DNA of 64,000 nucleotides from Bdellovibrionales bacterium (GCA_965261545.1 CBDHDF010000011.1:160001-224000), one strand, 5' to 3'. Numbered from the stretch's first letter, positions 20 to 54,824 are shown. The notes: generated by a model not told the origin, from the letters alone. Translations and numbers: made by a program.

Positions 20-1267
20 ATGGTTCATGAAGACCTTGTTAAAGAAAAGAAAGATTCTGGTGATATTGGTATGACATCGGAGCAAGTTCTCAAGGTGGCT
101 ATTCTTAAATCCATAAGAGGTCTTTCCTATCGTGCGTTAGCCTTTAATCTTGTCGATTCAGTATCCACCAGAGCTTTTCTGGGCCTTGAATTGGAAGAAA
201 ATTACGCTCACTCCACCTTACAGGACTTGATTGTTCAAATAAGTGAAGAAACTTGGGGAATTATTAGCGCCTCTTTAGTTTCAGATGCAAGAGATCAAAA
301 GATTGAGCCGTGTAAGAAAATGAGATTGGACAGTACAGTGACGAAATCAAATATTCATCATCCAACGGATGCATCGCTTTTATATGACTGCATAAGAGTT
401 ACAGAAAGAGAATTTAAAAAAGTTCGTAAAAATGTCATGAAAGATTTTTGGCGACTTATTTCAAGAGAAGATCTTAAGAGAGCAAAAACCTTGCTTTACA
501 AAATTAATAATTCCAAAAATGATGCGGAAAGACTACCTTGCTATAAGGAGCTTTTAAAAATCGCTACCAAATTGAACAAAGGATTACCTGATACCATCAG
601 AAAGATAAAAAAAGAACAAAAATGTGTGAAGATGAATGCTTTGAAAAAGAGTCTAAAACAGTTAGAAAATGTTGCCTTCTACCTGGAAAAAATCATCTTT
701 CAAACTCAAAAAAGAGTTATTGAGGGGAAAAAAGTATCTTCTGAAAAAAAGGTCCTATCCATCTTTGAACCGCATACAGACATTATTGTAAAGGGGCAAA
801 GAGAAGTCGAGTTTGGGCATAAAATCTTTCTGACCTCAGGGCAAAGCAACATGATTTTAGATTGTCAGATCCCTGATGGCAACCCCGCAGACTCTGATAT
901 GTTTTTAAAAGTTATGAATTCAGTGACACAAACCTATGGGGCTTGCCCTGTAAAAGTAAGTGCAGATGGTGGGTTTGCTTCAAAAGAAAATCTTGAAGAG
1001 GCCAAAGAGATGGGGGCTAAAGATGTTTGCTTCCCAGAAAAAAAAGGAATGAAAATATTAAAGATGGTTAAAAGTGCTTGGGTCTTTAAAAATCTTCTCA
1101 ATTGGAGAGCCGGAATAGAGGCTGTTATTTCATTCCTTAAGAGATGTTTTGGTATGAGAGTTGCTTACTGGAAAGGGCATGATGGTTTTAAGAGGTATGT
1201 AAAGAATGCCGTTTGTGCCTATAATTTTGTTGTCTTGGCAAGACATGAATTATCAACTGTCACCTAA
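20..1267 (+). CDS. ISNCY/IS5-like DDE transposase (N-terminus MRHLKK... lies upstream of window; about 454 aa in full)
   Basis: Motifs LDSTV, SIFEPHT, EFGHK, ADGGF, RAGIEAVISFLKR. The N-terminus is visible in the copy starting at 6025. Confidence 0.85.
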   Translation: MVHEDLVKEKKDSGDIGMTSEQVLKVAILKSIRGLSYRALAFNLVDSVSTRAFLGLELEENYAHSTLQDLIVQISEETWGIISASLVSDARDQKIEPCKKMRLDSTVTKSNIHHPTDASLLYDCIRVTEREFKKVRKNVMKDFWRLISREDLKRAKTLLYKINNSKNDAERLPCYKELLKIATKLNKGLPDTIRKIKKEQKCVKMNALKKSLKQLENVAFYLEKIIFQTQKRVIEGKKVSSEKKVLSIFEPHTDIIVKGQREVEFGHKIFLTSGQSNMILDCQIPDGNPADSDMFLKVMNSVTQTYGACPVKVSADGGFASKENLEEAKEMGAKDVCFPEKKGMKILKMVKSAWVFKNLLNWRAGIEAVISFLKRCFGMRVAYWKGHDGFKRYVKNAVCAYNFVVLARHELSTVT

Positions 1268-5397: not shown

Positions 5398-6891
5398 CAG
5401 CATATAATATATAAAAGCGTAGTCCCAATGGATGGATCAAAACTGGCCATTTGTGGGAGGAAATAATTCTTATTTAGTTCCTGTCCAGGGAAGAAAGTTA
5501 AGTAGTTTTAAGTATTTACATGCCTTCCCTTTAGATTTTATGCTTTAAAATGGAGTCCATCAAACATAATCCGTGTAAATTCAGTTACTTACATAAAACG
5601 GAAAAATAAAATAAGTTCCCCCCCCCCTCTCTTGACGAACCTTTCACAGCCCCTCCCTTTCAGTGACTTATGTGGCTATCAACTGGTTACTTGATATGAG
5701 AGGAAGAGTTGGATCAACCTGTGTTTCCACCGTGGTGATTTCAAACCTCCTTCAGGGAAATAACATTACGTTGCGCATCAACTTCAAAAAATACTTGACG
5801 TGTTTTTTCAGAGAAATAATTTTTGATATTTTATTCTTCATTTATTTTTTATGTAGGTTTTAGGAGGCGTGGGAACCTCTCTATGAGGTAGAATTCTTAT
5901 CCATGTTCTCCGAGAACCTCTCTGATTTTTTTCTTCTTAAAAGACATCCTTGCTCACTTTTTTCCCTCAAAAAAACGTATGTTAATATAAAAATTAAAGA
6001 GAAACTTTCACCAAAGGGGGGACTATGCGCCATTTGAAGAAGACACAGTTGGGACTCTTTTCCCAATATCCTAACCACCAACTCAGTACAGAATTGCAGC
6101 AAATTAATAACATCATTGATCGCCATCCAGAGTTTGCCCATATGGTTCATGAAGCAATGCCGTTTCCTTAAGCCACCACACCCCTCTGCCTCTGCGTTAA
6201 GCTATTTCTTTTAAAAGAACTCCCAGCCCTTTTGATAGACCTTTCATAGCTTCTTTTGAAGTGCCTCCTCTTCTCCATTGAAATCTTCATCAGCAACTTT
6301 ATCTGCTTCCTAAATTTCTGATAGTGTTAGCTGACAATTAAAATGCCCCACCGTCGCCAATGAAAAGTGGCCACTTTTCAGAGGAGGACCTATGGTGATT
6401 TTTGGCATTGTCAACCGAGACGCATATAATCAATTGATATTACTCATAAAAAGGCTCCGAGCTGATAAGAACTCCTTTTGGGTTCTTGTCGACCTGGAAA
6501 GGGGCTCCGTGTTGGAGAGTCCTTCCATGACAGCCTATTCAGGTTCCATATTTGTCATTTGTAGACTGTTTCTGGATTTCAATGAGGTTAAATATATAGT
6601 CAAGAAAAGCCTGTTTAGGCTGTGCCCATTTTCTAAAGTATTTAAATTCCACAAGATTCCAACATTTGCCTCAATTTTCATGGAATTTCTTTCTGAAGAC
6701 AGGCTTCCCTTAAAGCCGTCGCCAATTAAAATGTCCCACTTTCAATATGGAGGTTGTCGCCAATGAAAAGTGACCAATCTTCAGGGAGTGTTCAAATACT
6801 AGACAATGAAGTCTCTTCTTCTGATATAGATACTAAGCTCACAGAGTCCCTCCCTTTTGCAACTCAAAAGGTTAGCAATGAGGAGGATCTT

Positions 6892-8358
6892 ATGATTAGT
6901 CAATACACTTTCGGCCGCATTCGTGACCTGAGTCACAGTGGTAAAAATAAGACAGAAATATCTCGTGAATTAGGGATCAATCGTAAGACGGTGCGCAAGT
7001 ACTGTGAGTCCAACACCCCACCGAAGTACAAGGCGAGGTCCAAAAGAACTCGCCCAGATCCCCTTAATGGATATATGGATCGGGTGAAGTACTTTTTGAA
7101 GTTGAACCCAAGTAACACCGCCCGTGAAATATATGAGCTATTAGTTGAGGAGGGTTATCGTGGGAGTGAGAGAACGGTTCAGAGAAGAGTTTGTGAGATT
7201 CTTGGTTCTCGCCCCAAGGAGCGTTTTTTCAGCCAAAGATATGATCCTGGAGAACAGGCTCAGTTTGATTTTAAGGAGAAGGTTGCTTTACCATTTGCCG
7301 ATGGTGTTCAGATCGTTCATCTCCATTTTGGAACATTGCCTTGTAGTGGCACCTGTTGGGTTCGTGCCTACCCCTTTCTTGTCTATGAGTGTTTCATCGA
7401 TGGGGTGCATGCTTTTTTTGAAAAGATAGGTGGGATGAGTGCGAACATCCGTATTGATAATTTATCTCCCTGTGTGAAGAAAGTTCTTAAAGGAAATCAG
7501 CGAATTTACACCCAATCTTTTGATCGAGCCATCCAATACTATGGATTTAAGGTTCTTCCCTGCCGCGCAGGGAAGGGCTCTGACAAGGGAGATGTGGAGC
7601 GTGATATTCGAACCTTCAGTTCTCGGATAAAAAATATTGTTAGAAACAAAGGAATTGTTTTTAAAGACTGGGATCATTTGAATCAGTTTTTAGAGTCTTA
7701 TATGGATCAGCATCAGAGTGACTCCACCAAATCTCGCTTTGAGGAGGAGGCCAAAGTTCTTAAGCCTTTGCCTCCACGAGATGAAGATATTCTCTGTAAG
7801 GTGAATATTTGTCAAAGTAATGGTTATGGGACTTTGAGAATAGGTAAAACCACATATTCCATACCTGATGAGGTGATCCAAGCTCCCTGTAAAACCGTAC
7901 AGGGTCCCTATCATGTCACGATCTATCGTGCAGGAGGGAAGCAAGAAATTGTCGCTCGCCATCAAAGAAAACCTGATGGGGAGCATAGTCTTCTTCTTGA
8001 ACATATCCTTCCCTCTTTAGTTCGTAAGCCGCAAGCCATGGTAAGATGGGCTCACCGATCCATTCTTTTTCCAACAAATGTGTTTGAAAATTTTTATCAA
8101 TACCTCAAGCAACAAGATTCAAGCCGTGCCGAGCATGAATATTTAAGAGTTATCAACTTGATTCAGCATGTGAGTTGGCAGGACTTATCTACAGCCATGG
8201 AGCTTCAATTAGAAAGTCGTGAGATTTTCGACTTTAAATCCATAAAAGATTTGCTCTTAGGCAATCCCACCAAAATTAATTTGAATGACCAACAAAAACC
8301 ACTTCAACCTAGATTGTCTCAATATGACAGTCTTGTTCCAAACATAGGAGGTTCTTAA
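6892..8358 (+). CDS. istA: IS21 transposase IstA (start re-set to MISQY after GAGGAGG RBS)
   Basis: N-terminal HTH (ISRELGINRKTVRKY), QAQFDF, IDN and KGDVER DDE motifs. Confidence 0.92.
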   Translation: MISQYTFGRIRDLSHSGKNKTEISRELGINRKTVRKYCESNTPPKYKARSKRTRPDPLNGYMDRVKYFLKLNPSNTAREIYELLVEEGYRGSERTVQRRVCEILGSRPKERFFSQRYDPGEQAQFDFKEKVALPFADGVQIVHLHFGTLPCSGTCWVRAYPFLVYECFIDGVHAFFEKIGGMSANIRIDNLSPCVKKVLKGNQRIYTQSFDRAIQYYGFKVLPCRAGKGSDKGDVERDIRTFSSRIKNIVRNKGIVFKDWDHLNQFLESYMDQHQSDSTKSRFEEEAKVLKPLPPRDEDILCKVNICQSNGYGTLRIGKTTYSIPDEVIQAPCKTVQGPYHVTIYRAGGKQEIVARHQRKPDGEHSLLLEHILPSLVRKPQAMVRWAHRSILFPTNVFENFYQYLKQQDSSRAEHEYLRVINLIQHVSWQDLSTAMELQLESREIFDFKSIKDLLLGNPTKINLNDQQKPLQPRLSQYDSLVPNIGGS

Positions 8359-9140
8359 TGAATCACGAAGAACTTATAGGTTCTCTTAAAAAACTCCGAC
8401 TTCCAGCGATGGCGGATGAATATGTTGCAACGGCTAGAGTTGCCGAAAAAACAAAAAAGACGTATGAACAGTATTTAGGTATACTCGTTCAAAATGAGCT
8501 TGCTGACAAGCATTCCCAGAGAGTGAAAAGATTGCTTAAGGGGGCCAAGCTTCCTCAACTTAAATCACTCCAAACTTATAACTTCCAGAAAAGAACGGGA
8601 GTGACAGCTCAGCAAATTAATTGGATGGCAGAGGGAGAGTGGGTCAGAAAAGCCTGTAATGTTGTGTTTTACGGAAGCTTTGGAATGGGGAAAAGTCATT
8701 TGGCCATGTCCCTAGTTCGTTCACTCTGTGAACAAGGCTATCGATGTTTATGGGTCACCACTCATGAACTTATTGAAACAATGCGTGAAAGCAAGAAAGA
8801 ACTCTCATTGAATGCTCTTTTTAAGAAATTAGACCGTTTTGATCTTATTGCTTGTGATGAACTTGGCTATACAGCTTCCTGCACAGAGGGTGCTGATCTT
8901 TTCTTTCAATTCATATCTCAGCGATATGAAAGGAAAAGTCTCATGATCACTACAAACTTAACTTACTCTGAATGGGATAAGGTGTTTCTTAACCCTATTA
9001 CCACCGCTGCTGCTGTTGATCGAATTATTCACAACTGTGAAACCCTCAACATTGAAGGAAAAGAAAGTTGGAGAACCGAATCGGCAAAAGCCAAGTCTAA
9101 ACAGAGCAAAGAGGAAAGTTCAACCAAAGAAGTTCATTAG
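8358..9140 (+). CDS. istB: IS21 helper ATPase IstB
   Basis: Walker A GSFGMGKS, DELGY, ITTN, DRIIH; TAATG overlap with istA. Confidence 0.93.
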   Translation: MNHEELIGSLKKLRLPAMADEYVATARVAEKTKKTYEQYLGILVQNELADKHSQRVKRLLKGAKLPQLKSLQTYNFQKRTGVTAQQINWMAEGEWVRKACNVVFYGSFGMGKSHLAMSLVRSLCEQGYRCLWVTTHELIETMRESKKELSLNALFKKLDRFDLIACDELGYTASCTEGADLFFQFISQRYERKSLMITTNLTYSEWDKVFLNPITTAAAVDRIIHNCETLNIEGKESWRTESAKAKSKQSKEESSTKEVH

Positions 9141-13937: not shown

Positions 13938-15245
13938 AAGAATAAAAAACCACGAACACCTATGGGATCGGGTGAAGTACTTTTTGAAGTTGAACCCAAG
14001 TAACACCGCCCGTGAAATATATGAGCTATTAGTTGAGGAGGGTTATCGTGGGAGTGAGAGAACGGTTCAGAGAAGAGTTTGTGAGATTCTTGGTTCTCGC
14101 CCCAAGGAGCGTTTTTTCAGCCAAAGATATGATCCTGGAGAACAGGCTCAGTTTGATTTTAAGGAGAAGGTTGCTTTACCATTTGCCGATGGTGTTCAGA
14201 TCGTTCATCTCCATTTTGGAACATTGCCTTGTAGTGGCACCTGTTGGGTTCGTGCCTACCCCTTTCTTGTCTATGAGTGTTTCATCGATGGGGTGCATGC
14301 TTTTTTTGAAAAGATAGGTGGGATGAGTGCGAACATCCGTATTGATAATTTATCTCCCTGTGTGAAGAAAGTTCTTAAAGGAAATCAGCGAATTTACACC
14401 CAATCTTTTGATCGAGCCATCCAATACTATGGATTTAAGGTTCTTCCCTGCCGCGCAGGGAAGGGCTCTGACAAGGGAGATGTGGAGCGTGATATTCGAA
14501 CCTTCAGTTCTCGGATAAAAAATATTGTTAGAAACAAAGGAATTGTTTTTAAAGACTGGGATCATTTGAATCAGTTTTTAGAGTCTTATATGGATCAGCA
14601 TCAGAGTGACTCCACCAAATCTCGCTTTGAGGAGGAGGCCAAAGTTCTTAAGCCTTTGCCTCCACGAGATGAAGATATTCTCTGTAAGGTGAATATTTGT
14701 CAAAGTAATGGTTATGGGACTTTGAGAATAGGTAAAACCACATATTCCATACCTGATGAGGTGATCCAAGCTCCCTGTAAAACCGTACAGGGTCCCTATC
14801 ATGTCACGATCTATCGTGCAGGAGGGAAGCAAGAAATTGTCGCTCGCCATCAAAGAAAACCTGATGGGGAGCATAGTCTTCTTCTTGAACATATCCTTCC
14901 TTCTTTAGTTCGTAAGCCGCAAGCCATGGTAAGATGGGCTCACCGATCCATTCTTTTTCCAACAAATGTGTTTGAAAATTTTTATCAATACCTCAAGCAA
15001 CAAGATTCAAGCCGTGCCGAGCATGAATATTTAAGAGTTATCAACTTGATTCAGCATGTGAGTTGGCAGGACTTATCTACAGCCATGGAGCTTCAATTAG
15101 AAAGTCGTGAGATTTTCGACTTTAAATCCATAAAAGATTTGCTCTTAGGCAATCCCACCAAAATTAATTTGAATGACCAACAAAAACCACTTCAACCTAG
15201 ATTGTCTCAATATGACAGTCTTGTTCCAAACATAGGAGGTTCTTA

Positions 15246-16028
15246 ATGAATCACGAAGAACTTATAGGTTCTCTTAAAAAACTCCGACTTCCAGCGATGG
15301 CGGATGAATATGTTGCAACGGCTAGAGTTGCCGAAAAAACAAAAAAGACGTATGAACAGTATTTAGGTATACTCGTTCAAAATGAGCTTGCTGACAAGCA
15401 TTCCCAGAGAGTGAAAAGATTGCTTAAGGGGGCCAAGCTTCCTCAACTTAAATCACTCCAAACTTATAACTTCCAGAAAAGAACGGGAGTGACAGCTCAG
15501 CAAATTAATTGGATGGCAGAGGGAGAGTGGGTCAGAAAAGCCTGTAATGTTGTGTTTTACGGAAGCTTTGGAATGGGGAAAAGTCATTTGGCCATGTCCC
15601 TAGTTCGTTCACTCTGTGAACAAGGCTATCGATGTTTATGGGTCACCACTCATGAACTTATTGAAACAATGCGTGAAAGCAAGAAAGAACTCTCATTGAA
15701 TGCTCTTTTTAAGAAATTAGACCGTTTTGATCTTATTGCTTGTGATGAACTTGGCTATACAGCTTCCTGCACAGAGGGGGCAGATCTTTTCTTTCAATTC
15801 ATATCTCAGCGATATGAAAGGAAAAGTCTCATGATCACTACAAACTTAACATACTCTGAATGGGATAAGGTGTTTCTTAACCCTATTACCACCGCTGCTG
15901 CTGTTGATCGAATCATTCACAACTGTGAAACCCTCAACATTGAAGGAAAAGAAAGTTGGAGAACCGAATCGGCAAAAGCCAAGTCTAAACAGAGCAAAGA
16001 GGAAAGTTCAACCAAAGAAGTTCATTAG
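15246..16028 (+). CDS. istB: IS21 helper ATPase IstB
   Basis: Same protein as 8358-9140. Confidence 0.93.
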   Translation: MNHEELIGSLKKLRLPAMADEYVATARVAEKTKKTYEQYLGILVQNELADKHSQRVKRLLKGAKLPQLKSLQTYNFQKRTGVTAQQINWMAEGEWVRKACNVVFYGSFGMGKSHLAMSLVRSLCEQGYRCLWVTTHELIETMRESKKELSLNALFKKLDRFDLIACDELGYTASCTEGADLFFQFISQRYERKSLMITTNLTYSEWDKVFLNPITTAAAVDRIIHNCETLNIEGKESWRTESAKAKSKQSKEESSTKEVH

Positions 16029-16682
16029 AGATCCCCACTTTTGGGGAAGGAACTCGCCAGTTATCCACAAAATTTATCCACAGCAGCACTGCGTTGCTAG
16101 ACATCGGGGTCACAGCCGCAGTGTCGCCATGGATAAATTTATGGATAACTGGCTTTTACCGTACTATTTGCTCGTCACTCTCGCGGAGCTTTAGACATTA
16201 GCTGCGCCAAGGAATCCTGAAAAATACTCCATTTACCTCTGCCATAGGGCTGAAGGATGCATTTGGGGTCATGCCAAAAGTGGTGGGCAGAAAATCATTC
16301 CTCAGAATCTTGTGGCATAGTCCGAGTTAAATGATGAGCAAAATAAAGACACTTGACTAAACTCTGAACGAAGAATAACTAAATCAGTACATCATCAACT
16401 GGCCGTTTTTCATTGGCGACGGCTTCTAAAAATGGCCAATTTTAATTGGCGCCTAACATATCGTGCGTTAGCCTTTAATCTTGTCGATTCAGTATCCACC
16501 AGAGCTTTTCTGGGCCTTGAATTGGAAGAAAATTACGCTCACTCCACCTTACAGGACTTGATTGTTCAAATAAGTGAAGAAACTTGGGGAATTATTAGCG
16601 CCTCTTTAGTTTCAGATGCAAGAGATCAAAAGATTGAGCCGTGTAAGAAAATGAGAGTGGACAGTACAGTGACGAAATCAAA

Positions 16683-17044
16683 CGAGTCCATTACTTAATA
16701 CCCCCGTCAACGACAGAGGTTTTAGAGAGCTAAGGGTCACGGACCCCTCCCATCCCCTTTATAGGAAGTCATTCAAGGTGATTTCCATACCTAAAAATCA
16801 GAAAAAATCTACTTTTGCTTTTGTTCAATACAAGAACCACATGACGCTACGCATACCATTGGCTTCTACCAATCTGAACCCCAATCTCTACGATAGGCAG
16901 GCCCCAAGCAAACTTGGTATAGTTGCAATTCAGGAGCTAATTTCACTGACTCAACAACTGGAAGAGCAACTATGTCAATTACACCAAAAGATGTCTGGCC
17001 AAGACTGCCAAAAGAAATTCAAAAGCAAGTCATCAAAGACTTAA
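16683..17044 (+). CDS. Small accessory protein of E (resembles DUF5372/Y4bD-type), lacking its start codon in the integrated state
   Basis: Frame is open to the left junction; the motif VTDPSHPLY lies upstream of the first usable start (GTG 16778). Confidence 0.6.
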
Positions 17045-17208
17045 CTTTAGCCATTGAGGAGATTATATATGAAAACATCGGAATTGATTACACCTATTCA
17101 CTTAAAGAGAAAAGCCATAATATACATCAGACAGTCGACCCCTCAGCAAGCCATCAAAAACAAAGAAAGTCTCGACCTTCAATACTCACTCAGGCAAAGA
17201 GCTACTGA
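16972..17208 (+). CDS. Small hypothetical protein overlapping the LSR start
   Basis: ATG with GAAGAG upstream; identical in both E copies. Confidence 0.35.
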   Translation: MSITPKDVWPRLPKEIQKQVIKDLTLAIEEIIYENIGIDYTYSLKEKSHNIHQTVDPSASHQKQRKSRPSILTQAKSY

Positions 17209-19114
17209 ATTAGGTTGGCAAGAAGATAGTATTGAAATTGTCGATGATGATTTGGGGATCACAGGAAGTAGTATACAGTTTAGAGAAGGCTTCAAGAATA
17301 TCCTTGCAGAAGTGACCTTGGAAAAAATTGGTATTATTCTATCGTACGATGTCACTCGTCTATCTAGAAACTGTACGGACTGGTACCAATTACTTGATCT
17401 GTGTGCTTTTAAGAATTGCCTCATTGCTGATAGAGAGTCTATTTATAACCCTTCTAATGTTAATGGAAGAATGTTACTCGGGTTTAAAGGTCAACTCTCA
17501 GAAATGGAATTATTTACGATACGCAATAGATTAACAGCAGGTCTTCTCAACAAAGCCAAGCGAGGAGATTTAGCTCTTAAATTACCAGTTGGTTTTATTC
17601 GAACAGAACAAGGTAAAGTGCTAAAAGATCCAAATAAAGATTTACAAGATCGCATAAATTTAGTATTTACTATATTCTTAAAACTGAAATCAGCCGGTAA
17701 GGTGTCGCGATTTTTTAACGATAACAACCTCTTACTTCCAAGAGTTGATTTTGTAAAAAGTATTCATTGGAAAAAAACATCCAAGGCAGCCATACTTTCT
17801 ATTTTGAAGAATCCAGCTTATAGCGGAACTTTTGTATATGGCAAAGCTGAATACCGTAGAAAAGACTTAGCTGGAAAACTTAAGCGTACAAAGCTTCCAC
17901 TTAATGAATGGAAAATTGTTGTGAAAGATAAATATCCTAAATATATCGATTGGAATACATTCTTAAAAATACAAGAAATTCTAAAAGACAACTACACTGA
18001 ATATACTCGTAATAAAACAAGAGGCATACCTCGCCCTGGTAAGGCCCTCTTACATGGGATAGTCTATTGTGGAGAATGTGGCCACAAAATGTCAGTGCAG
18101 TATAAAACAGCAACTCGATACTTATGCAACTATCTACGCCAACAACATCGGGAACCTACTTGCCAATTCATTCCTACAGATCCAATCGATGATTATGTAG
18201 TAAACACTTTTTTTAAGGTTCTTTCCCCTGTCGAGCTAGACTTGTATGCCAAGGCTTTAGAAAATAAGTCAAAAATTGACCAAGAGGTTTACAAATCACA
18301 CATTCAGCAAATTCAGCGTTTAAGGTATGAAGCTCAACTGGTAGAAAAGAGGTATCGCAAAGTAGACCCTGAGAATAGACTTGTTGCAGATGAATTAGAA
18401 ACACAATGGGAAGAGGCTTTAGTAATACTTAAAAAAGCCGAAGATCACCTAGAGAGGGTTAAGAATGAACAGCGTATTCCAACTGTGATCTCTCAAAAAA
18501 TGAAAAGAGAATTTTCAGATTTGAATCAAAAACTACCTTCGCTATGGGAGGATAAGATATTGACCAAAGACATGAAAAAGAAAATTCTTAGAACATTGGT
18601 TGAAAAGGTTGTCATTCACAGAAAGAAAAGAGATATGGTTGCACTGAGAATTGTTTGGATTGGAGGAGATACAACAGAAGCTAGCATTCCAATCAAAGTT
18701 GGATCTTTTGATGAACTGTCATCTTCTGAAACGATAAAGAAAATAATTGCGCAGCAGGTCAAGCTTGGGGTGTCTGATGAAGATATTGCCAAACTATTGA
18801 CCCAAAAAGGATTCAGATCACCAATGGATACCACTTTTCTCAGAAATACTGTGAAGTCCTATAGACTAAACAATAAAATCTATCGGAATCGAAAGCACTC
18901 TTTTCCGACCAAAGTCGAGGGAAGCCTCACAACATCTCAAATTGCAGCACTTATTGATGTTAAAGTTCATTGGATTTATCACCATATTAAACAAGGGAGG
19001 ATCATTGTCAAAAAACACGAGAAAACAAAGGCTTATCTCTTTCCAGATAAGAAAAAAACCATATCTGACTTTAAAAAACTTAAGTCCGGATCAATTAAAA
19101 AGCTACGTTACTAA
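17069..19114 (+). CDS. Large serine recombinase (resolvase + recombinase + Zn-ribbon + coiled coil + C-terminal HTH)
   Basis: Catalytic YIRQS, TRLSRN, ILKNPAYSG, CGECG...C...C; GAGGAG RBS before MKTS. Confidence 0.92.
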   Translation: MKTSELITPIHLKRKAIIYIRQSTPQQAIKNKESLDLQYSLRQRATELGWQEDSIEIVDDDLGITGSSIQFREGFKNILAEVTLEKIGIILSYDVTRLSRNCTDWYQLLDLCAFKNCLIADRESIYNPSNVNGRMLLGFKGQLSEMELFTIRNRLTAGLLNKAKRGDLALKLPVGFIRTEQGKVLKDPNKDLQDRINLVFTIFLKLKSAGKVSRFFNDNNLLLPRVDFVKSIHWKKTSKAAILSILKNPAYSGTFVYGKAEYRRKDLAGKLKRTKLPLNEWKIVVKDKYPKYIDWNTFLKIQEILKDNYTEYTRNKTRGIPRPGKALLHGIVYCGECGHKMSVQYKTATRYLCNYLRQQHREPTCQFIPTDPIDDYVVNTFFKVLSPVELDLYAKALENKSKIDQEVYKSHIQQIQRLRYEAQLVEKRYRKVDPENRLVADELETQWEEALVILKKAEDHLERVKNEQRIPTVISQKMKREFSDLNQKLPSLWEDKILTKDMKKKILRTLVEKVVIHRKKRDMVALRIVWIGGDTTEASIPIKVGSFDELSSSETIKKIIAQQVKLGVSDEDIAKLLTQKGFRSPMDTTFLRNTVKSYRLNNKIYRNRKHSFPTKVEGSLTTSQIAALIDVKVHWIYHHIKQGRIIVKKHEKTKAYLFPDKKKTISDFKKLKSGSIKKLRY

Positions 19115-20341
19115 GGGGGTATCAACATGAGTGATCAAATATTCATCATCCAACGGATGCATCGCTTTTATATGACTGCATAAGAGTTACAGAAAGAGAA
19201 TTTAAAAAAGTTCGTAAAAATGTCATGAAAGATTTTTGGCGACTTATTTCAAGAGAAGATCTTAAGAGAGCAAAAACCTTGCTTTACAAAATTAATAATT
19301 CCAAAAATGATGCGGAAAGACTACCTTGCTATAAGGAGCTTTTAAAAATCGCTACCAAATTGAACAAAGGATTACCTGATACCATCAGAAAGATAAAAAA
19401 AGAACAAAAATGTGTGAAGATGAATGCTTTGAAAAAGAGTCTAAAACAGTTAGAAAATGTTGCCTTCTACCTGGAAAAAATCATCTTTCAAACTCAAAAA
19501 AGAGTTATTGAGGGGAAAAAAGTATCTTCTGAAAAAAAGGTCCTATCCATCTTTGAACCGCATACAGACATTATTGTAAAGGGGCAAAGAGAAGTCGAGT
19601 TTGGGCATAAAATCTTTCTGACCTCAGGGCAAAGCAACATGATTTTAGATTGTCAGATCCCTGATGGCAACCCCGCAGACTCTGATATGTTTTTAAAAGT
19701 TATGAATTCAGTGACACAAACCTATGGGGCTTGCCCTGTAAAAGTAAGTGCAGATGGTGGGTTTGCTTCAAAAGAAAATCTTGAAGAGGCCAAAGAGATG
19801 GGGGCTAAAGATGTTTGCTTCCCAGAAAAAAAAGGAATGAAAATATTAAAGATGGTTAAAAGTGCTTGGGTCTTTAAAAATCTTCTCAATTGGAGAGCCG
19901 GAATAGAGGCTGTTATTTCATTCCTTAAGAGATGTTTTGGTATGAGAGTTGCTTACTGGAAAGGGCATGATGGTTTTAAGAGGTATGTAAAGAATGCCGT
20001 TTGTGCCTATAATTTTGTTGTCTTGGCAAGACATGAATTATCAACTGTCACCTAAATTTATCCATTAGGAATAACAGCAATGGACCAGGTCGAAGGTGCT
20101 AAAATCTTCCAAAGGTAGGGGTGCGTCTTCAAATCGAAAAAACTAGGGCGCAAGTCGCTTAAAGACCTTTTTCCCCTTAATCTGTAGAGTTTGTGTGGCA
20201 AATCTCCAACTCTCACTCCCCCATTGAGGCATTGGGAGGCTCAATGGGGAGTGTCAGAGAACAAAAAATGGGCCTTTCTGGACAGAAACTACTTAAAATT
20301 GCGACAAATCATGTAATATTAGTAGGACTTGATAGTATTAT

Positions 20342-25919: not shown

Positions 25920-26702
25920 CTAATGAACTTCTTTGGTTGAACTTTCCTCTTTGCTCTGTTTAGACTTGGCTTTTGCCGATTCGGTTCTCCAACTTTCTTT
26001 TCCTTCAATGTTGAGGGTTTCACAGTTGTGAATGATTCGATCAACAGCAGCAGCGGTGGTAATAGGGTTAAGAAACACCTTATCCCATTCAGAGTATGTT
26101 AAGTTTGTAGTGATCATGAGACTTTTCCTTTCATATCGCTGAGATATGAATTGAAAGAAAAGATCTGCCCCCTCTGTGCAGGAAGCTGTATAGCCAAGTT
26201 CATCACAAGCAATAAGATCAAAACGGTCTAATTTCTTAAAAAGAGCATTCAATGAGAGTTCTTTCTTGCTTTCACGCATTGTTTCAATAAGTTCATGAGT
26301 GGTGACCCATAAACATCGATAGCCTTGTTCACAGAGTGAACGAACTAGGGACATGGCCAAATGACTTTTCCCCATTCCAAAGCTTCCGTAAAACACAACA
26401 TTACAGGCTTTTCTGACCCACTCTCCCTCTGCCATCCAATTAATTTGCTGAGCTGTCACTCCCGTTCTTTTCTGGAAGTTATAAGTTTGGAGTGATTTAA
26501 GTTGAGGAAGCTTGGCCCCCTTAAGCAATCTTTTCACTCTCTGGGAATGCTTGTCAGCAAGCTCATTTTGAACGAGTATACCTAAATACTGTTCATACGT
26601 CTTTTTTGTTTTTTCGGCAACTCTAGCCGTTGCAACATATTCATCCGCCATCGCTGGAAGTCGGAGTTTTTTAAGAGAACCTATAAGTTCTTCGTGATTC
26701 AT
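25920..26702 (-). CDS. istB: IS21 helper ATPase IstB
   Basis: Same protein as the other C copies. Confidence 0.93.
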   Translation of the reverse strand: MNHEELIGSLKKLRLPAMADEYVATARVAEKTKKTYEQYLGILVQNELADKHSQRVKRLLKGAKLPQLKSLQTYNFQKRTGVTAQQINWMAEGEWVRKACNVVFYGSFGMGKSHLAMSLVRSLCEQGYRCLWVTTHELIETMRESKKELSLNALFKKLDRFDLIACDELGYTASCTEGADLFFQFISQRYERKSLMITTNLTYSEWDKVFLNPITTAAAVDRIIHNCETLNIEGKESWRTESAKAKSKQSKEESSTKEVH

Positions 26703-28168
26703 TAAGAACCTCCTATGTTTGGAACAAGACTGTCATATTGAGACAATCTAGGTTGAAGTGGTTTTTGTTGGTCATTCAAATTAATTTTGGTGGGATTTCC
26801 TAAGAGCAAATCTTTTATGGATTTAAAGTCGAAAATCTCACGACTTTCTAATTGAAGCTCCATGGCTGTAGATAAGTCCTGCCAACTCACATGCTGAATC
26901 AAGTTGATAACTCTTAAATATTCATGCTCGGCACGGCTTGAATCTTGTTGCTTGAGGTATTGATAAAAATTTTCAAACACATTTGTTGGAAAAAGAATGG
27001 ATCGGTGAGCCCATCTTACCATGGCTTGCGGCTTACGAACTAAAGAGGGAAGGATATGTTCAAGAAGAAGACTATGCTCCCCATCAGGTTTTCTTTGATG
27101 GCGAGCGACAATTTCTTGCTTCCCTCCTGCACGATAGATCGTGACATGATAGGGACCCTGTACGGTTTTACAGGGAGCTTGGATCACCTCATCAGGTATG
27201 GAATATGTGGTTTTACCTATTCTCAAAGTCCCATAACCATTACTTTGACAAATATTCACCTTACAGAGAATATCTTCATCTCGTGGAGGCAAAGGCTTAA
27301 GAACTTTGGCCTCCTCCTCAAAGCGAGATTTGGTGGAGTCACTCTGATGCTGATCCATATAAGACTCTAAAAACTGATTCAAATGATCCCAGTCTTTAAA
27401 AACAATTCCTTTGTTTCTAACAATATTTTTTATCCGAGAACTGAAGGTTCGAATATCACGCTCCACATCTCCCTTGTCAGAGCCCTTCCCTGCGCGGCAG
27501 GGAAGAACCTTAAATCCATAGTATTGGATGGCTCGATCAAAAGATTGGGTGTAAATTCGCTGATTTCCTTTAAGAACTTTCTTCACACAGGGAGATAAAT
27601 TATCAATACGGATGTTCGCACTCATCCCACCTATCTTTTCAAAAAAAGCATGCACCCCATCGATGAAACACTCATAGACAAGAAAGGGGTAGGCACGAAC
27701 CCAACAGGTGCCACTACAAGGCAATGTTCCAAAATGGAGATGAACGATCTGAACACCATCGGCAAATGGTAAAGCAACCTTCTCCTTAAAATCAAACTGA
27801 GCCTGTTCTCCAGGATCATATCTTTGGCTGAAAAAACGCTCCTTGGGGCGAGAACCAAGAATCTCACAAACTCTTCTCTGAACCGTTCTCTCACTCCCAC
27901 GATAACCCTCCTCAACTAATAGCTCATATATTTCACGGGCGGTGTTACTTGGGTTCAACTTCAAAAAGTACTTCACCCGATCCATATATCCATTAAGGGG
28001 ATCTGGGCGAGTTCTTTTGGACCTCGCCTTGTACTTCGGTGGGGTGTTGGACTCACAGTACTTGCGCACCGTCTTACGATTGATCCCTAATTCACGAGAT
28101 ATTTCTGTCTTATTTTTACCACTGTGACTCAGGTCACGAATGCGGCCGAAAGTGTATTGACTAATCAT
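26702..28168 (-). CDS. istA: IS21 transposase IstA
   Basis: Intact copy; start set at MISQY. Confidence 0.92.
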   Translation of the reverse strand: MISQYTFGRIRDLSHSGKNKTEISRELGINRKTVRKYCESNTPPKYKARSKRTRPDPLNGYMDRVKYFLKLNPSNTAREIYELLVEEGYRGSERTVQRRVCEILGSRPKERFFSQRYDPGEQAQFDFKEKVALPFADGVQIVHLHFGTLPCSGTCWVRAYPFLVYECFIDGVHAFFEKIGGMSANIRIDNLSPCVKKVLKGNQRIYTQSFDRAIQYYGFKVLPCRAGKGSDKGDVERDIRTFSSRIKNIVRNKGIVFKDWDHLNQFLESYMDQHQSDSTKSRFEEEAKVLKPLPPRDEDILCKVNICQSNGYGTLRIGKTTYSIPDEVIQAPCKTVQGPYHVTIYRAGGKQEIVARHQRKPDGEHSLLLEHILPSLVRKPQAMVRWAHRSILFPTNVFENFYQYLKQQDSSRAEHEYLRVINLIQHVSWQDLSTAMELQLESREIFDFKSIKDLLLGNPTKINLNDQQKPLQPRLSQYDSLVPNIGGS

Positions 28169-29408
28169 AAGATCCTCCTCATTGCTAACCTTTTGAGTTG
28201 CAAGAGGGAGGGACTCTGTGAGCTTAGTATCTATATCAGAAGAAGAGACTTCATTGTCTAGTATTTGAACACTCCCTGAAGATTGGTCACTTTTCATTGG
28301 CGACAACCTCCATATTGAAAGTGGGACATTTTAATTGGCGACGGCTTTAAGGGAAGCCTGTCTTTAGAAAGAAATTCCATGAAAATTGAGGCAAATGTTG
28401 GAATCTTGTGGAATTTAAATACTTTAGAAAATGGGCACACCTAAACAGGCTTTTCTTGACTATATATTTAACCTCATTGAAATCCAGAAACAGTCTACAA
28501 ATGACAAATATGGAACCTGAATAGGCTGTCATGGAAGGACTCTCCAACACGGAGCCCCTTTCCAGGTCGACAAGAACCCAAAAGGAGTTCTTATCAGCTC
28601 GGAGCCTTTTTATGAGTAATATCAATTGATTATATGCGTCTCGGTTGACAATGCCAAAAATCACCATAGGTCCTCCTCTGAAAAGTGGCCACTTTTCATT
28701 GGCGACGGTGGGGCATTTTAATTGTCAGCTAACATACCTTGACTTATCGCTTGAAGGTGAATGCAAACTATTGGGAGTCTTTTTTTACTGGCCAATTTCA
28801 TTCAGGTTTTACCAGAAAGTATCATAAACAGAATTTTGATCTAAACCATCAATCAGCGTCGAGTTTGATGAATCTTCAAGAAAAGATTGAGATGGGTGAG
28901 GGGCCTTTTTATCTCCATGCTTCAGACATGAGTCGCCATAAATTGGAGGGAGCACTCCCCCTTTATCAAATGGCATGAAAAAAAGCCCTATTGTGATTGT
29001 TCAGGTTGTAATTTCTTCTTAGAAGTGGAATCGAATTTTTTGTGGAAAAGAAATTTGGAAGGTACAGCCTTCCAATTACCAGTGTTTAGAGAAATTCTAT
29101 AGTCAGTAGGACATCCACCACGGCCTGTTCCTGCCACACGGTACAGCAAAGCCATCGCAAGATGAAATCTAGGACCCTGAAAATAATGAATTTCAATACT
29201 TTTATTTTCAGAAGGTGCAAATACATAAGGCTGAGAGGTACAGCGCCACCTCGGAGAATGAAGAGAGTCATCTTGGAGAATAGTCTTTCCGTCGAGAATA
29301 ACTCTCATTCCATCGTCAGAGACCATGGCAAACTCATAGGACTTTGATTTTGATCCATTGTTGGGCATAATAAATCCTGAAATACGCAATGAGAACCACT
29401 CATAGAGT

Positions 29409-30825: not shown

Positions 30826-31226
30826 ACTCATAGAGTGTATCACCATTTAGGTCTTTAATAAGGGTTCCATCATTGGTTTGAAATCCGTCTTCAAAATATA
30901 GAAAAGGGGTATTGACTTGATTCAAATGGATAAGAGTTGGAATTCTCGTGCCATGTTTCAAATAGCCATCGAGTTTCTTATTATATTTGGTTTGAGAAGA
31001 ATTCAGGTAATATATATATCCAGCAAGTCCGTTGGATGAAGTGGAGCATTGTGAATTTTTAAATGGATTACAGATAATTTCCACGGTGTTTACGTTCCAA
31101 GAATGACTTTTTTTGCTGGTATCGCCATTGTTATCAACAGCTACGACATGAAAACTATGTGTTCCAACACGAAGATTTGTTAGAGTTTCTGAGTGGGATG
31201 CTTGGCAGCTCCTAGGCTCTTCGTCA

Positions 31227-33689
31227 TTTGATCACTCATGTTGATACCCCCTTAGTAACGTAGCTTTTTAATTGATCCGGACTTAAGTTTTTTAAAGTCA
31301 GATATGGTTTTTTTCTTATCTGGAAAGAGATAAGCCTTTGTTTTCTCGTGTTTTTTGACAATGATCCTCCCTTGTTTAATATGGTGATAAATCCAATGAA
31401 CTTTAACATCAATAAGTGCTGCAATTTGAGATGTTGTGAGGCTTCCCTCGACTTTGGTCGGAAAAGAGTGCTTTCGATTCCGATAGATTTTATTGTTTAG
31501 TCTATAGGACTTCACAGTATTTCTGAGAAAAGTGGTATCCATTGGTGATCTGAATCCTTTTTGGGTCAATAGTTTGGCAATATCTTCATCAGACACCCCA
31601 AGCTTGACCTGCTGCGCAATTATTTTCTTTATCGTTTCAGAAGATGACAGTTCATCAAAAGATCCAACTTTGATTGGAATGCTAGCTTCTGTTGTATCTC
31701 CTCCAATCCAAACAATTCTCAGTGCAACCATATCTCTTTTCTTTCTGTGAATGACAACCTTTTCAACCAATGTTCTAAGAATTTTCTTTTTCATGTCTTT
31801 GGTCAATATCTTATCCTCCCATAGCGAAGGTAGTTTTTGATTCAAATCTGAAAATTCTCTTTTCATTTTTTGAGAGATCACAGTTGGAATACGCTGTTCA
31901 TTCTTAACCCTCTCTAGGTGATCTTCGGCTTTTTTAAGTATTACTAAAGCCTCTTCCCATTGTGTTTCTAATTCATCTGCAACAAGTCTATTCTCAGGGT
32001 CTACTTTGCGATACCTCTTTTCTACCAGTTGAGCTTCATACCTTAAACGCTGAATTTGCTGAATGTGTGATTTGTAAACCTCTTGGTCAATTTTTGACTT
32101 ATTTTCTAAAGCCTTGGCATACAAGTCTAGCTCGACAGGGGAAAGAACCTTAAAAAAAGCGTTTACTACATAATCATCGATTGGATCTGTAGGAATGAAT
32201 TGGCAAGTAGGTTCCCGATGTTGTTGGCGTAGATAGTTGCATAAGTATCGAGTTGCTGTTTTATACTGCACTGACATTTTGTGGCCACATTCTCCACAAT
32301 AGACTATCCCATGTAAGAGGGCCTTACCAGGGCGAGGTATGCCTCTTGTTTTATTACGAGTATATTCAGTGTAGTTGTCTTTTAGAATTTCTTGTATTTT
32401 TAAGAATGTATTCCAATCGATATATTTAGGATATTTATCTTTCACAACAATTTTCCATTCATTAAGTGGAAGCTTTGTACGCTTAAGTTTTCCAGCTAAG
32501 TCTTTTCTACGGTATTCAGCTTTGCCATATACAAAAGTTCCGCTATAAGCTGGATTCTTCAAAATAGAAAGTATGGCTGCCTTGGATGTTTTTTTCCAAT
32601 GAATACTTTTTACAAAATCAACTCTTGGAAGTAAGAGGTTGTTATCGTTAAAAAATCGCGACACCTTACCGGCTGATTTCAGTTTTAAGAATATAGTAAA
32701 TACTAAATTTATGCGATCTTGTAAATCTTTATTTGGATCTTTTAGCACTTTACCTTGTTCTGTTCGAATAAAACCAACTGGTAATTTAAGAGCTAAATCT
32801 CCTCGCTTGGCTTTGTTGAGAAGACCTGCTGTTAATCTATTGCGTATCGTAAATAATTCCATTTCTGAGAGTTGACCTTTAAACCCGAGTAACATTCTTC
32901 CATTAACATTAGAAGGGTTATAAATAGACTCTCTATCAGCAATGAGGCAATTCTTAAAAGCACACAGATCAAGTAATTGGTACCAGTCCGTACAGTTTCT
33001 AGATAGACGAGTGACATCGTACGATAGAATAATACCAATTTTTTCCAAGGTCACTTCTGCAAGGATATTCTTGAAGCCTTCTCTAAACTGTATACTACTT
33101 CCTGTGATCCCCAAATCATCATCGACAATTTCAATACTATCTTCTTGCCAACCTAATTCAGTAGCTCTTTGCCTGAGTGAGTATTGAAGGTCGAGACTTT
33201 CTTTGTTTTTGATGGCTTGCTGAGGGGTCGACTGTCTGATGTATATTATGGCTTTTCTCTTTAAGTGAATAGGTGTAATCAATTCCGATGTTTTCATATA
33301 TAATCTCCTCAATGGCTAAAGTTAAGTCTTTGATGACTTGCTTTTGAATTTCTTTTGGCAGTCTTGGCCAGACATCTTTTGGTGTAATTGACATAGTTGC
33401 TCTTCCAGTTGTTGAGTCAGTGAAATTAGCTCCTGAATTGCAACTATACCAAGTTTGCTTGGGGCCTGCCTATCGTAGAGATTGGGGTTCAGATTGGTAG
33501 AAGCCAATGGTATGCGTAGCGTCATGTGGTTCTTGTATTGAACAAAAGCAAAAGTAGATTTTTTCTGATTTTTAGGTATGGAAATCACCTTGAATGACTT
33601 CCTATAAAGGGGATGGGAGGGGTCCGTGACCCTTAGCTCTCTAAAACCTCTGTCGTTGACGGGGGTATTAAGTAATGGACTCGTTTGAT
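31227..33689 (-). mobile_element. LSR element E copy 2
   Basis: Near-identical to copy 1; TTTGAT at both junctions; the two flanks come from different loci. Confidence 0.88.
31252..33297 (-). CDS. Large serine recombinase
   Basis: One visible substitution versus copy 1 (VNTFF/VNAFF). Confidence 0.92.
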   Translation of the reverse strand: MKTSELITPIHLKRKAIIYIRQSTPQQAIKNKESLDLQYSLRQRATELGWQEDSIEIVDDDLGITGSSIQFREGFKNILAEVTLEKIGIILSYDVTRLSRNCTDWYQLLDLCAFKNCLIADRESIYNPSNVNGRMLLGFKGQLSEMELFTIRNRLTAGLLNKAKRGDLALKLPVGFIRTEQGKVLKDPNKDLQDRINLVFTIFLKLKSAGKVSRFFNDNNLLLPRVDFVKSIHWKKTSKAAILSILKNPAYSGTFVYGKAEYRRKDLAGKLKRTKLPLNEWKIVVKDKYPKYIDWNTFLKIQEILKDNYTEYTRNKTRGIPRPGKALLHGIVYCGECGHKMSVQYKTATRYLCNYLRQQHREPTCQFIPTDPIDDYVVNAFFKVLSPVELDLYAKALENKSKIDQEVYKSHIQQIQRLRYEAQLVEKRYRKVDPENRLVADELETQWEEALVILKKAEDHLERVKNEQRIPTVISQKMKREFSDLNQKLPSLWEDKILTKDMKKKILRTLVEKVVIHRKKRDMVALRIVWIGGDTTEASIPIKVGSFDELSSSETIKKIIAQQVKLGVSDEDIAKLLTQKGFRSPMDTTFLRNTVKSYRLNNKIYRNRKHSFPTKVEGSLTTSQIAALIDVKVHWIYHHIKQGRIIVKKHEKTKAYLFPDKKKTISDFKKLKSGSIKKLRY

Positions 33690-38620: not shown

Positions 38621-38648
38621 TAATATGGTAAAGCAATCACCTAGTCAT

Positions 38649-39020
38649 GCCTCTGTGGCGGAATTGGTAGACGCGCCGGACTCAAAAAGTTCTCCGTCCA
38701 ACAGTGAAAGGGAATTTGCAAAGAGATAAAATGGTAGGCATTTCAGCGGCTTGCAATCTGTTTTTGCATCCATCTGAAAGCCTAAAAATAAGGAACGCAA
38801 CATATACGCAACAAGCCTCTGTGGCGGAATTGGTAGACGCGCCGGACTCAAAAAGTTCTCCGTCCAACAGTGAAAGGGAATTTGCAAAAGAGATAAAATG
38901 GTAGGCATTTCAGCGGCTTGCAATCTGTTTTTGCATCCATCTGAAAGCCTAAAAATAAGGAACGCAACATATACGCAACAAGCCTCTGTGGCGGAATTGG
39001 TAGACGCGCCGGACTCAAAA
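38649..39020 (+). repeat. Tandem 166/167-bp repeat, each unit starting with the 5' 39 nt of tRNA-Leu
   Basis: GCCTCTGTGGCGGAATTGGTAGACGCGCCGGACTCAAAA at 38649, 38815 and 38982. Confidence 0.92.
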
Positions 39021-39068
39021 TTCGGTTCTGGTAACAGAGTGGGAGTTCGATTCTCCCCGGAGGCACCA
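38982..39068 (+). tRNA. tRNA-Leu (CAA)
   Basis: Cloverleaf with GGTAGAC D-loop, CTCAAAA anticodon loop, long variable arm, GTTCGA T-loop and encoded CCA. Confidence 0.95.
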
Positions 39069-43048: not shown

Positions 43049-43964
43049 GAGCCTCTTTGAAAAAAGACATGACAAAAAATATTGAATGATTCATGAAATA
43101 CCTCCTTATGGGTATGGGTGGGATGGGATGAGTGGTCTGCATGATTCAAGTTAGTTTTGGATGATTGGAGAGGGGTGCTTCCGTGAGGTTTGAAGTTGGA
43201 AGACTCTCAGGAAATCCCTTCATTCTCAGAATTTTTTTTTGACGATGGGCGCAAAAATAAAGTTTAGTCCTTTTCAAAACGGCCAAAAAGGGTGTAGGCC
43301 ATGGCCGCTACGAACAAAAAAACAAATAGAAGGAGCTAAGAGCTGCTAGCCAATGTTTCTTATGATCTCAAAGCTTCCGAGACTCAATGAAGGCAAATGT
43401 TAGCTGACAATTAAAATGCCCCACCGTCGCCAATGAAAAGTGGCCACTTTTCAGAGGAGGACCTATGGTGATTTTTGGCATTGTCAACCGAGACGCATAT
43501 AATCAATTGATATTACTCATAAAAAGGCTCCGAGCTGATAAGAACTCCTTTTGGGTTCTTGTCGACCTGGAAAGGGGCTCCGTGTTGGAGAGTCCTTCCA
43601 TGACAGCCTATTCAGGTTCCATATTTGTCATTTGTAGACTGTTTCTGGATTTCAATGAGGTTAAATATATAGTCAAGAAAAGCCTGTTTAGGCTGTGCCC
43701 ATTTTCTAAAGTATTTAAATTCCACAAGATTCCAACATTTGCCTCAATTTTCATGGAATTTCTTTCTAAAGACAGGCTTCCCTTAAAGCCGTCGCCAATT
43801 AAAATGTCCCACTTTCAATATGGAGGTTGTCGCCAATGAAAAGTGACCAATCTTCAGGGAGTGTTCAAATACTAGACAATGAAGTCTCTTCTTCTGATAT
43901 AGATACTAAGCTCACAGAGTCCCTCCCTCTTGCAACTCAAAAGGTTAGCAATGAGGAGGATCTT

Positions 43965-45431
43965 ATGATTAGTCAATACACTTTCGGCCGCATTCGTGAC
44001 CTGAGTCACAGTGGTAAAAATAAGACAGAAATATCTCGTGAATTAGGGATCAATCGTAAGACGGTGCGCAAGTACTGTGAGTCCAACACCCCACCGAAGT
44101 ACAAGGCGAGGTCCAAAAGAACTCGCCCAGATCCCCTTAATGGATATATGGATCGGGTGAAGTACTTTTTGAAGTTGAACCCAAGTAACACCGCCCGTGA
44201 AATATATGAGCTATTAGTTGAGGAGGGTTATCGTGGGAGTGAGAGAACGGTTCAGAGAAGAGTTTGTGAGATTCTTGGTTCTCGCCCCAAGGAGCGTTTT
44301 TTCAGCCAAAGATATGATCCTGGAGAACAGGCTCAGTTTGATTTTAAGGAGAAGGTTGCTTTACCATTTGCCGATGGTGTTCAGATCGTTCATCTCCATT
44401 TTGGAACATTGCCTTGTAGTGGCACCTGTTGGGTTCGTGCCTACCCCTTTCTTGTCTATGAGTGTTTCATCGATGGGGTGCATGCTTTTTTTGAAAAGAT
44501 AGGTGGGATGAGTGCGAACATCCGTATTGATAATTTATCTCCCTGTGTGAAGAAAGTTCTTAAAGGAAATCAGCGAATTTACACCCAATCTTTTGATCGA
44601 GCCATCCAATACTATGGATTTAAGGTTCTTCCCTGCCGCGCAGGGAAGGGCTCTGACAAGGGAGATGTGGAGCGTGATATTCGAACCTTCAGTTCTCGGA
44701 TAAAAAATATTGTTAGAAACAAAGGAATTGTTTTTAAAGACTGGGATCATTTGAATCAGTTTTTAGAGTCTTATATGGATCAGCATCAGAGTGACTCCAC
44801 CAAATCTCGCTTTGAGGAGGAGGCCAAAGTTCTTAAGCCTTTGCCTCCACGAGATGAAGATATTCTCTGTAAGGTGAATATTTGTCAAAGTAATGGTTAT
44901 GGGACTTTGAGAATAGGTAAAACCACATATTCCATACCTGATGAGGTGATCCAATCTCCCTGTAAAACCGTACAGGGTCCCTATCATGTCACGATCTATC
45001 GTGCAGGAGGGAAGCAAGAAATTGTCGCTCGCCATCAAAGAAAACCTGATGGGGAGCATAGTCTTCTTCTTGAACATATCCTTCCCTCTTTAGTTCGTAA
45101 GCCGCAAGCCATGGTAAGATGGGCTCACCGATCCATTCTTTTTCCAACAAATGTGTTTGAAAATTTTTATCAATACCTCAAGCAACAAGATTCAAGCCGT
45201 GCCGAGCATGAATATTTAAGAGTTATCAACTTGATTCAGCATGTGAGTTGGCAGGACTTATCTACAGCCATGGAGCTTCAATTAGAAAGTCGTGAGATTT
45301 TCGACTTTAAATCCATAAAAGATTTGCTCTTAGGCAATCCCACCAAAATTAATTTGAATGACCAACAAAAACCACTTCAACCTAGATTGTCTCAATATGA
45401 CAGTCTTGTTCCAAACATAGGAGGTTCTTAA
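43965..45431 (+). CDS. istA: IS21 transposase IstA
   Basis: Intact copy; start set at MISQY. Confidence 0.92.
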   Translation: MISQYTFGRIRDLSHSGKNKTEISRELGINRKTVRKYCESNTPPKYKARSKRTRPDPLNGYMDRVKYFLKLNPSNTAREIYELLVEEGYRGSERTVQRRVCEILGSRPKERFFSQRYDPGEQAQFDFKEKVALPFADGVQIVHLHFGTLPCSGTCWVRAYPFLVYECFIDGVHAFFEKIGGMSANIRIDNLSPCVKKVLKGNQRIYTQSFDRAIQYYGFKVLPCRAGKGSDKGDVERDIRTFSSRIKNIVRNKGIVFKDWDHLNQFLESYMDQHQSDSTKSRFEEEAKVLKPLPPRDEDILCKVNICQSNGYGTLRIGKTTYSIPDEVIQSPCKTVQGPYHVTIYRAGGKQEIVARHQRKPDGEHSLLLEHILPSLVRKPQAMVRWAHRSILFPTNVFENFYQYLKQQDSSRAEHEYLRVINLIQHVSWQDLSTAMELQLESREIFDFKSIKDLLLGNPTKINLNDQQKPLQPRLSQYDSLVPNIGGS

Positions 45432-54198: not shown

Positions 54199-54689
54199 GA
54201 GTTCCTAGGGGGATGCCAAAAACTCCCCCGTCGGTGACTTTTCGACGAATCACTTGGGGGGCTTTGTACTTAATGGCAGCAGCCTCCTGAATAAAACCCC
54301 CTTGATAAGTCACTCCTTGAGTGGAAAGATGAGAGGGTGTTTTTTGAGGAGACATTGTTGGAGAGGTTGTCATTTGCAAGTTCACCTGTTTCTCTTTGTT
54401 CATAGGGTTTCCTTTGTTCTCTGAAGATTTCAGCAATTGACTCACAATGGATGAACCCTTAGAGCCATGTGGATGGGGTGGTTGTACTTTCTGACTCTTT
54501 GTCAGTGCAGCCTGTGCCTTGGATTTATTCACCGTCATAAGCTGACTGGAATCTCTGTGAGCCTTGAAAAAGAAAGTCATGAAGGAACCCCCAACAACCA
54601 TCAGAATGACGACTATGGATGTCTTTTTTTTATTGAGCATATCCTTGCCCCCATCTTTTTTGATGAAACATGAACCCAACTTATGAATA

Positions 54690-54824
54690 ACCTCCATTGG
54701 AGGAACCTTCACCGAAGGAACCTTCACCGAAGGAACCTTCACCGAAGGAACCTTCACCGAAGGAGCCTTCATCGAAGGAACTTTCATCGAAGGAGCCTTC
54801 ACCAAAGGAACCTTCATCGAAGGA
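54690..54824. repeat. Nine 15-bp tandem repeats (ACCTTCACCGAAGGA consensus)
   Basis: Read directly; most units contain the palindrome CCTTC-N3-GAAGG. Confidence 0.92.

Follow-up and report, generated by a model that had tools for sequence, protein, structure and literature searches.

How can a small gene be expressed when its start codon lies at one end of a mobile element and its body at the other? This question is raised by a serine-recombinase element in a 64,000-nucleotide stretch of DNA from a Bdellovibrionales bacterium (GCA_965261545.1 CBDHDF010000011.1:160001-224000), the whole of which was analysed and is called the window here. The element spans positions 16677-19139 (∼2.46 kb), is flanked by two copies of ATCAAA (16677-16682 and 19134-19139) and carries on one strand a startless frame, orfA, a small gene, orfB, and a gene for a large serine recombinase of 681 amino acids. 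By sequence comparison we show that the ribosome-binding site (RBS), the ATG and the first four codons of orfA lie in the right attachment site (attR) and its body in the left one (attL), and that the predicted fusion of the two is under selection.

At the right end, the recombinase stop codon (19112-19114) is followed directly by GGGGGTATCAAC (19115-19126, + strand) and the ATG at 19127, which in the integrated state reads just 18 codons into the host gene. The start codon and first four codons of orfA (19127-19139, +) end in the core ATCAAA. At the left end, a frame of 120 codons without a stop (16682-17044, +) is closed, when integrated, by a TGA four codons upstream; its first ATG, GTG or TTG is the GTG at 16778 (codon 33), downstream of a VTDPSHPLY motif. 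Scripted joining of the ends across the core gives a frame of 124 amino acids with no internal stop. The original prediction, made from the sequence alone, held that excision of the element would assemble a gene, and each of its structural statements was reproduced: an RBS and ATG right after the recombinase stop, a left frame that is stop-free and startless up to GTG 16778, an in-frame junction yielding 124 amino acids, and a VTDPSHPLY segment translated solely in the joined form. The second copy in the window (31227-33689, − strand) has the identical arrangement and differs by one base. The further claim, that joined ends are the sole possible source of the full protein, is strongly supported by the conserved fusion and the homologue alignments described below. 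Two features go beyond that account, namely the third conserved small gene, orfB, and the position of the RBS within the recombinase-binding arm of attP, the attachment site of the excised circle.

The target of the element is an ISNCY-family insertion sequence (IS) transposase gene, interrupted at its conserved D-S-T-V motif. An intact ISNCY copy at window positions 20-1267 (NF033593, E=3e-116) has a single ATCAAA at 346-351 and represents the empty site, attB. The 5′ fragment of the interrupted target (16459-16676, +; attB left half, same as positions 128-351 of the intact copy) is cut off upstream by an IS21 element, and the 3′ part follows at 19140-20055 (+; attB right half, by comparison with the intact copy). 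The comparison with the empty site and the centre of the attP inverted repeat place the inferred crossover at the dinucleotide AA, positions 16681-16682 of the shared core in attL (16677-16682, +) and 19138-19139 in attR. As in large-serine-recombinase elements generally, attL and attR form at a central dinucleotide and the empty attB restores the target. The host genome (11 contigs) contains 8 full-length copies of the element and 3 partial or interrupted ones; exact-flank counts gave 46 empty sites, 10 attL and 9 attR with ISNCY flank. Near-identical copies at many sites would imply recent movement. The second window copy has an ISNCY flank on its left and a different sequence on its right (31100-31226), also present at C7:145504-145803, which points to a later insertion or rearrangement at attR.

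Single-sequence searches for relatives performed poorly (one match for orfA; none for the recombinase in the genome_contigs collection; none in 300 other genomes of the phylum), and alignments were therefore needed. Alignment-based scans gave at least 80 genome and at least 80 metagenome loci from many phyla, and tblastn returned 658 plasmid records, 406 of them covering most of the recombinase; Anabaena azotica, Bradyrhizobium and Rhodobacter capsulatus are among the carriers of relatives. Among 174 loci examined, 141 had orfA and both recombinase ends, 133 of these had sufficient flank and 121 were scored at both arms, with arm models that omit the start codon and were scanned at every offset; the scored set leaves out L003, which has a deletion (compare L010). 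When these homologues were circularised in silico, as the original prediction had proposed, the joined frame was in frame and stop-free in 121 of 121. A further 12 elements with weak arms were set aside, 11 of which were in frame; the remaining one, at a contig end, was not. Spacers of 38, 44, 47, 53, 56, 59 and 62 share one phase, and frame 0 is kept after dereplication at 70% (67/67) and at 50% identity (28/28). Since the elements share ancestry, the 121 rows are not independent of one another; the independent part of this evidence lies in the six non-modal spacer lengths. Between the crossover and the motif, stops in the 67 representatives numbered 0 in the orfA frame and 27 and 66 in the other frames, and changes in this linker favour third codon positions (548 versus 396 and 324). 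The identities of OrfA and recombinase are correlated (rho 0.83), for which shared descent suffices as an explanation. Database homologues of OrfA align from left-frame residues 1-20, and not only from GTG 16778, with called starts that are scattered.

Could the ATG and the RBS be by-products of the attP arms, orfA being translated from an internal or non-canonical start with no gating at all? The two ends of the element make up an inverted repeat; of the 24 bases that separate its outer motifs, the ATG is the first triplet and the crossover dinucleotide the centre. The predicted dinucleotide is the same at both ends in 100 of 121 elements (permuted mean 38.6, maximum 51). The left arm (P′ half-site, 16683-16705, +), mirror-symmetric to the right arm across the 67 representatives, has CGA beside the core and the outer motif CTTAATACCCCC at 16694-16705, and it also encodes the start of the orfA body. 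Mirrored on both arms are TCG beside the core and the G-rich outer motif, which on the right arm is Shine-Dalgarno-like in 64 of 67. The RBS coincides with a mirrored arm and has a double use, as binding arm and as Shine-Dalgarno-like site. A motif mirrored in this way is at least partly a binding motif, which speaks for a by-product, as do an internal ATG, GTG or TTG near the VTDPSHPLY-type motif in 33 of 67 representatives and the fact that two attP arms need not be symmetric; an internal start with a Shine-Dalgarno-like site ahead of the motif is present in only 5 of 67. The ATG itself, however, stands at the junction start in 66 of 67 representatives versus 3 of 67 at the mirror triplet of the other arm, so that recombinase binding does not explain it. 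Over the 121 elements the junction start is ATG in 118 and GTG in 2, together 120 of 121, and ATA in 1; codon 2 and the mirror triplet, by contrast, are free to vary. With the phase held over seven spacer lengths, 67 of 67 frames stop-free and this copy startless before the motif, translation independent of the junction is highly improbable.

The orfA body is DUF5372/Y4bD-like, as judged from its open frame, its homologues and its model: OrfA shares the motif, remote homology and the position before a recombinase with DUF5372 and Y4bD-Y4pK proteins, and NCBI names some homologues, a close one among them, 'Y4bD/Y4pK family protein, partial'. At the curated cut-off neither PF17342 (DUF5372) nor any other family matched the window OrfA; two relatives gave E=0.034 (L001) and E=1e-26 (L021) with PF17342. 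That the Pfam model begins at the valine of the motif is what one would expect if gene callers miss the true start. An atlas comparison places orfA with DUF5372 clusters, with top matches of 0.92-0.93 that have low recognition value. The modelled body has a mean predicted local distance difference test (pLDDT) score of 83 and a predicted four-stranded SH3/KOW-like barrel (residues 14-65) followed by a helix (80-98). In fold searches nothing reached E 0.001 or Z 5; the best matches were SH3/KOW-like, including NusG/Spt5 KOW domains, at Z of 4.8 or less, and the arrangement is a common one. Next to it, orfB (16972-17208, +) has its own ATG, overlaps orfA and the recombinase start, and has a conserved core of ∼35 amino acids (PxDxWxxLxPxLRRQI). 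The recombinase (17069-19114, +; PF00239, PF07508, PF13408) comprises resolvase and recombinase domains, a zinc ribbon, a coiled coil and an extra C-terminal helical or helix-turn-helix-like region (HTH_17 below cut-off, E=0.005), with invariant YxRQS and zinc cysteines.

In more distant clades 15 elements were read (∼30-36% identity where measured), and in most of them an ATG coincides with the recombinase stop or comes shortly after it. Among the eight with a usable motif, the longest shared core was in frame in two (the outer element of L002, and L187). L184, L186 and L191 have an in-frame core at the expected position among several candidates; L021 and L192 are ambiguous, and L019 has no start under the filter and looks frameshifted by eye. 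On this weaker evidence, the split layout probably extends across DUF5372/Y4bD elements.

The relatives insert in group II intron reverse transcriptases, IS66 tnpB, other serine recombinases and an IS3-type integrase. Among the 121, the hosts are IS66 tnpB (40), reverse transcriptase (39), serine recombinase (7), IS3-type (2) and ISNCY (1), with 21 unclassified and 11 whose flank is too short; one Microvirga copy is inserted in dctP. Target class follows the recombinase tree (62 representatives). Hosts were rejoined at the 104 loci with complete flanks; a homologue spanned the join in 74, and in 62 of these it fitted best at the predicted register. The host frame is fused to the orfA frame in 0 of 89 classed loci, and a plain test of host read-through at 102 loci was uninformative (71 versus 55 and 53). 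Read in the frame of the target gene, the crossover dinucleotide occupies the first two codon positions in 88 of the 89 classed loci, and does so in both orientations. One clade (L002, L013, L014, L015, L071 and L086) has as its target, at a DG-x-Y motif, the recombinase gene of related elements of the DUF5372 type, which produces nested elements; orfB is not recognisable there.

What would a gene that is whole only in the circle do? We propose, with a probability of roughly 45%, that attP splits the accessory gene and that circle-only OrfA binds the recombinase and acts in the integration phase. An IS-sized serine-recombinase element inserts at a conserved motif in a gene of another mobile element, its attP spanning the first codons of its own orfA. 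Excision would yield a circle in which transcription of the recombinase gene continues across attP into orfA, with coupled translation restarting right at the recombinase stop, which lies within 16 bases before to 5 after the ATG in 62 of 67 representatives. OrfA would then bind the recombinase and favour attP × attB recombination or block re-excision; integration would destroy orfA, making the switch self-limiting, and excision from the integrated state, in which the recombinase and OrfB are both intact, would fall to the recombinase with or without OrfB. An integration-phase role is favoured because orfA is present as a whole gene precisely as long as attP is, and is lost on integration, and because a non-replicating circle would gain nothing by blocking its own return. 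Protein-family scans of the element turned up no replication gene, and Rfam no RNA family.

Co-folding of OrfA with the full recombinase, using alignments made for this analysis, scored 0.60, against 0.05 for the best of three controls, with contacts agreeing by at least 83% and a partner pLDDT of at least 66. Among solved complexes 116 of 157 reach the pass mark, among mismatches 2 of 215; passing scores of 0.60 or under, which the tool rates as weak, are those of 18 of the 157 complexes and of both passing mismatches. The model is thus a weak indication that OrfA binds its cognate recombinase. Circle maintenance, one of the roles offered in the original prediction, found no support.

Several results weigh against the proposed explanation. 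No circle junction was found in the 11 contigs of the host genome, in the viral contigs or in four contig sets of one source sample, where solely the empty-site join appeared, and neither a circle nor an intact attP was found in 77 genomes or records, with a search pattern that catches 112 of 121 computed attP sites. Co-folding gave no interface; no conserved sigma-70-like promoter was found (scan 6 versus 7.8 expected, common position 14/67); and the internal start codons of 33 of 67 representatives make leaky OrfA expression possible in the integrated state. Known serine-integrase cofactors, in the accessible part of PMC12286644, favour excision and not integration, so that the direction in which OrfA acts is argued from selection only. 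As to the circles, assemblies and contig sets drop rare forms of this kind. Four of 344 database proteins (P0046, P0088, P0094 and P0182) start like the joined form, one of them on a 2600-base contig; they are a hint and were not counted as proof, since R or Q at codon 4 is also encoded by attL and the called starts vary in position. The intact gene is in no chromosome searched, which fits a transient circle without proving it.

The direction could also be the reverse of the familiar one at the level of the whole family: the recombinase, by virtue of its extra C-terminal domains or of OrfB, would excise by default, and DUF5372/Y4bD proteins would be circle-only integration factors, so that in this widespread family each change of recombination state would create or remove the switch. 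We put this forward tentatively and regard it as doubtful. Under the same gating, OrfA might instead be a classical directionality factor that keeps the first circle out and triggers other copies in trans, a positive feedback leading to bursts of movement. A small element-encoded protein with the weak predicted binding described above would suit that role, directionality factors have no common fold in the part of PMC11795197 available, and in the recombinase-targeting clade the lack of a recognisable orfB leaves orfA as the sole separate candidate. Such a factor, however, would be missing exactly when excision must begin, a non-replicating circle making an integration inhibitor would presumably be lost, and the intact gene expressible when integrated that marks directionality factors is absent here, with no start before the motif in this copy; we consider this unlikely. 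Quite unlikely, too, is an equally gated OrfA without directional role, which would regulate or protect the circle state by damping the recombinase, by binding OrfB, RNA polymerase or nucleic acid, or by finding target elements. The barrel, with NusG/Spt5 KOW domains among its nearest folds, and the weakness of the binding prediction point in this direction; the lack of a significant fold match and of any replication gene or RNA family points away from it.

The surroundings of the element are a pile-up of mobile elements. IS21 copies with istA, istB and a preceding, unassigned open reading frame of 124 amino acids lie at window positions 6392-9140, 13972-16028, 25920-28667 and 43465-46213, nested with IS4 and ISNCY pieces. 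Positions 38646-39055 hold three tandem tRNA-like 5′ halves at ∼167-base spacing, which suggests repeated integration at a tRNA gene, and positions 54674-54838 a 15-base tandem repeat within a coding region. A second multi-copy serine recombinase (∼548 amino acids, 23% identical) is encoded at G000 C11:547567-549162 and at 8 further places outside the window, in a repeat of ∼1.9-2 kb, some copies of which are inside larger repeats; profile searches found no orfA homologue in it.

A function in the circle would give DUF5372/Y4bD proteins, listed with scattered starts or as 'partial', both a role and a true N terminus. For large serine recombinases, which serve as tools in genome engineering, it would suggest a directionality switch that is gated by a cofactor and perhaps reversed, and it would offer a compact natural design for recombination-gated translation. 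The comparison defines a ∼2.45-kb family over many phyla, each clade of which targets a conserved gene of another mobile element, and supplies more than 100 sets of recombinase, attP/attB and cofactor for direct testing. A literature search that covered few subscription papers found nothing relevant on DUF5372, y4bA/y4bD/NGRIS-4/y4pK, and no description of a start codon split off by the attP of a serine recombinase.

How does this layout compare with known systems? Joined ends in a circle switch on expression in Tn4451/Tn4453, whose serine recombinase, TnpX, needs no separate factor for excision, and in IS3, IS21 and IS110. Their junctions make a promoter, whereas here a translation start joins a gene body. 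The DUF5372 (PF17342)/Y4bD-Y4pK proteins encoded next to 'recombinase family' genes have the same motif and the same position, with no function assigned; the y4bA-D element of NGR234 is presumably one such case. Large serine recombinases with a directionality factor (PMC12286644, PMC10083194) share the domains, short att sites and central dinucleotide, and have a small co-encoded protein, which here has weak predicted binding; in the accessible parts of these sources the known factors have genes that are intact when integrated, favour excision, and are in no case gated by attP assembly.

The original prediction knew of no such arrangement in serine-recombinase elements, and we too found no precedent there in the literature covered; an own gene split by its att site is, however, known from other recombinase systems. 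In the 'suicidal' tyrosine integrases of the SSV type (archaeal viruses and plasmids), att lies inside the integrase's own gene, which integration breaks and excision restores (PMC7253208, accessible part). In those elements integration disrupts the tyrosine integrase itself, whereas here the serine recombinase stays intact when integrated; what is split is an accessory gene, four codons past its start, and its RBS and ATG belong to the arm of attP. In mycobacteriophage BPs, attP lies in the repressor gene 33 and immunity depends on integration (PMC4557955, accessible part); as here, the form in which a regulatory protein is made depends on recombination at attP. In BPs, integration removes a C-terminal tag and yields the active repressor, whereas here the N terminus is lost and the integrated form is predicted to be silent; there is, moreover, no phage and no match to a repressor family, the split is at codon 4-5, and the protein is a predicted barrel with one helix. 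The split layout is real and conserved: the principle of an attachment site within an element's own gene is known, and its form in the accessory gene of a serine-recombinase element appears to be new.

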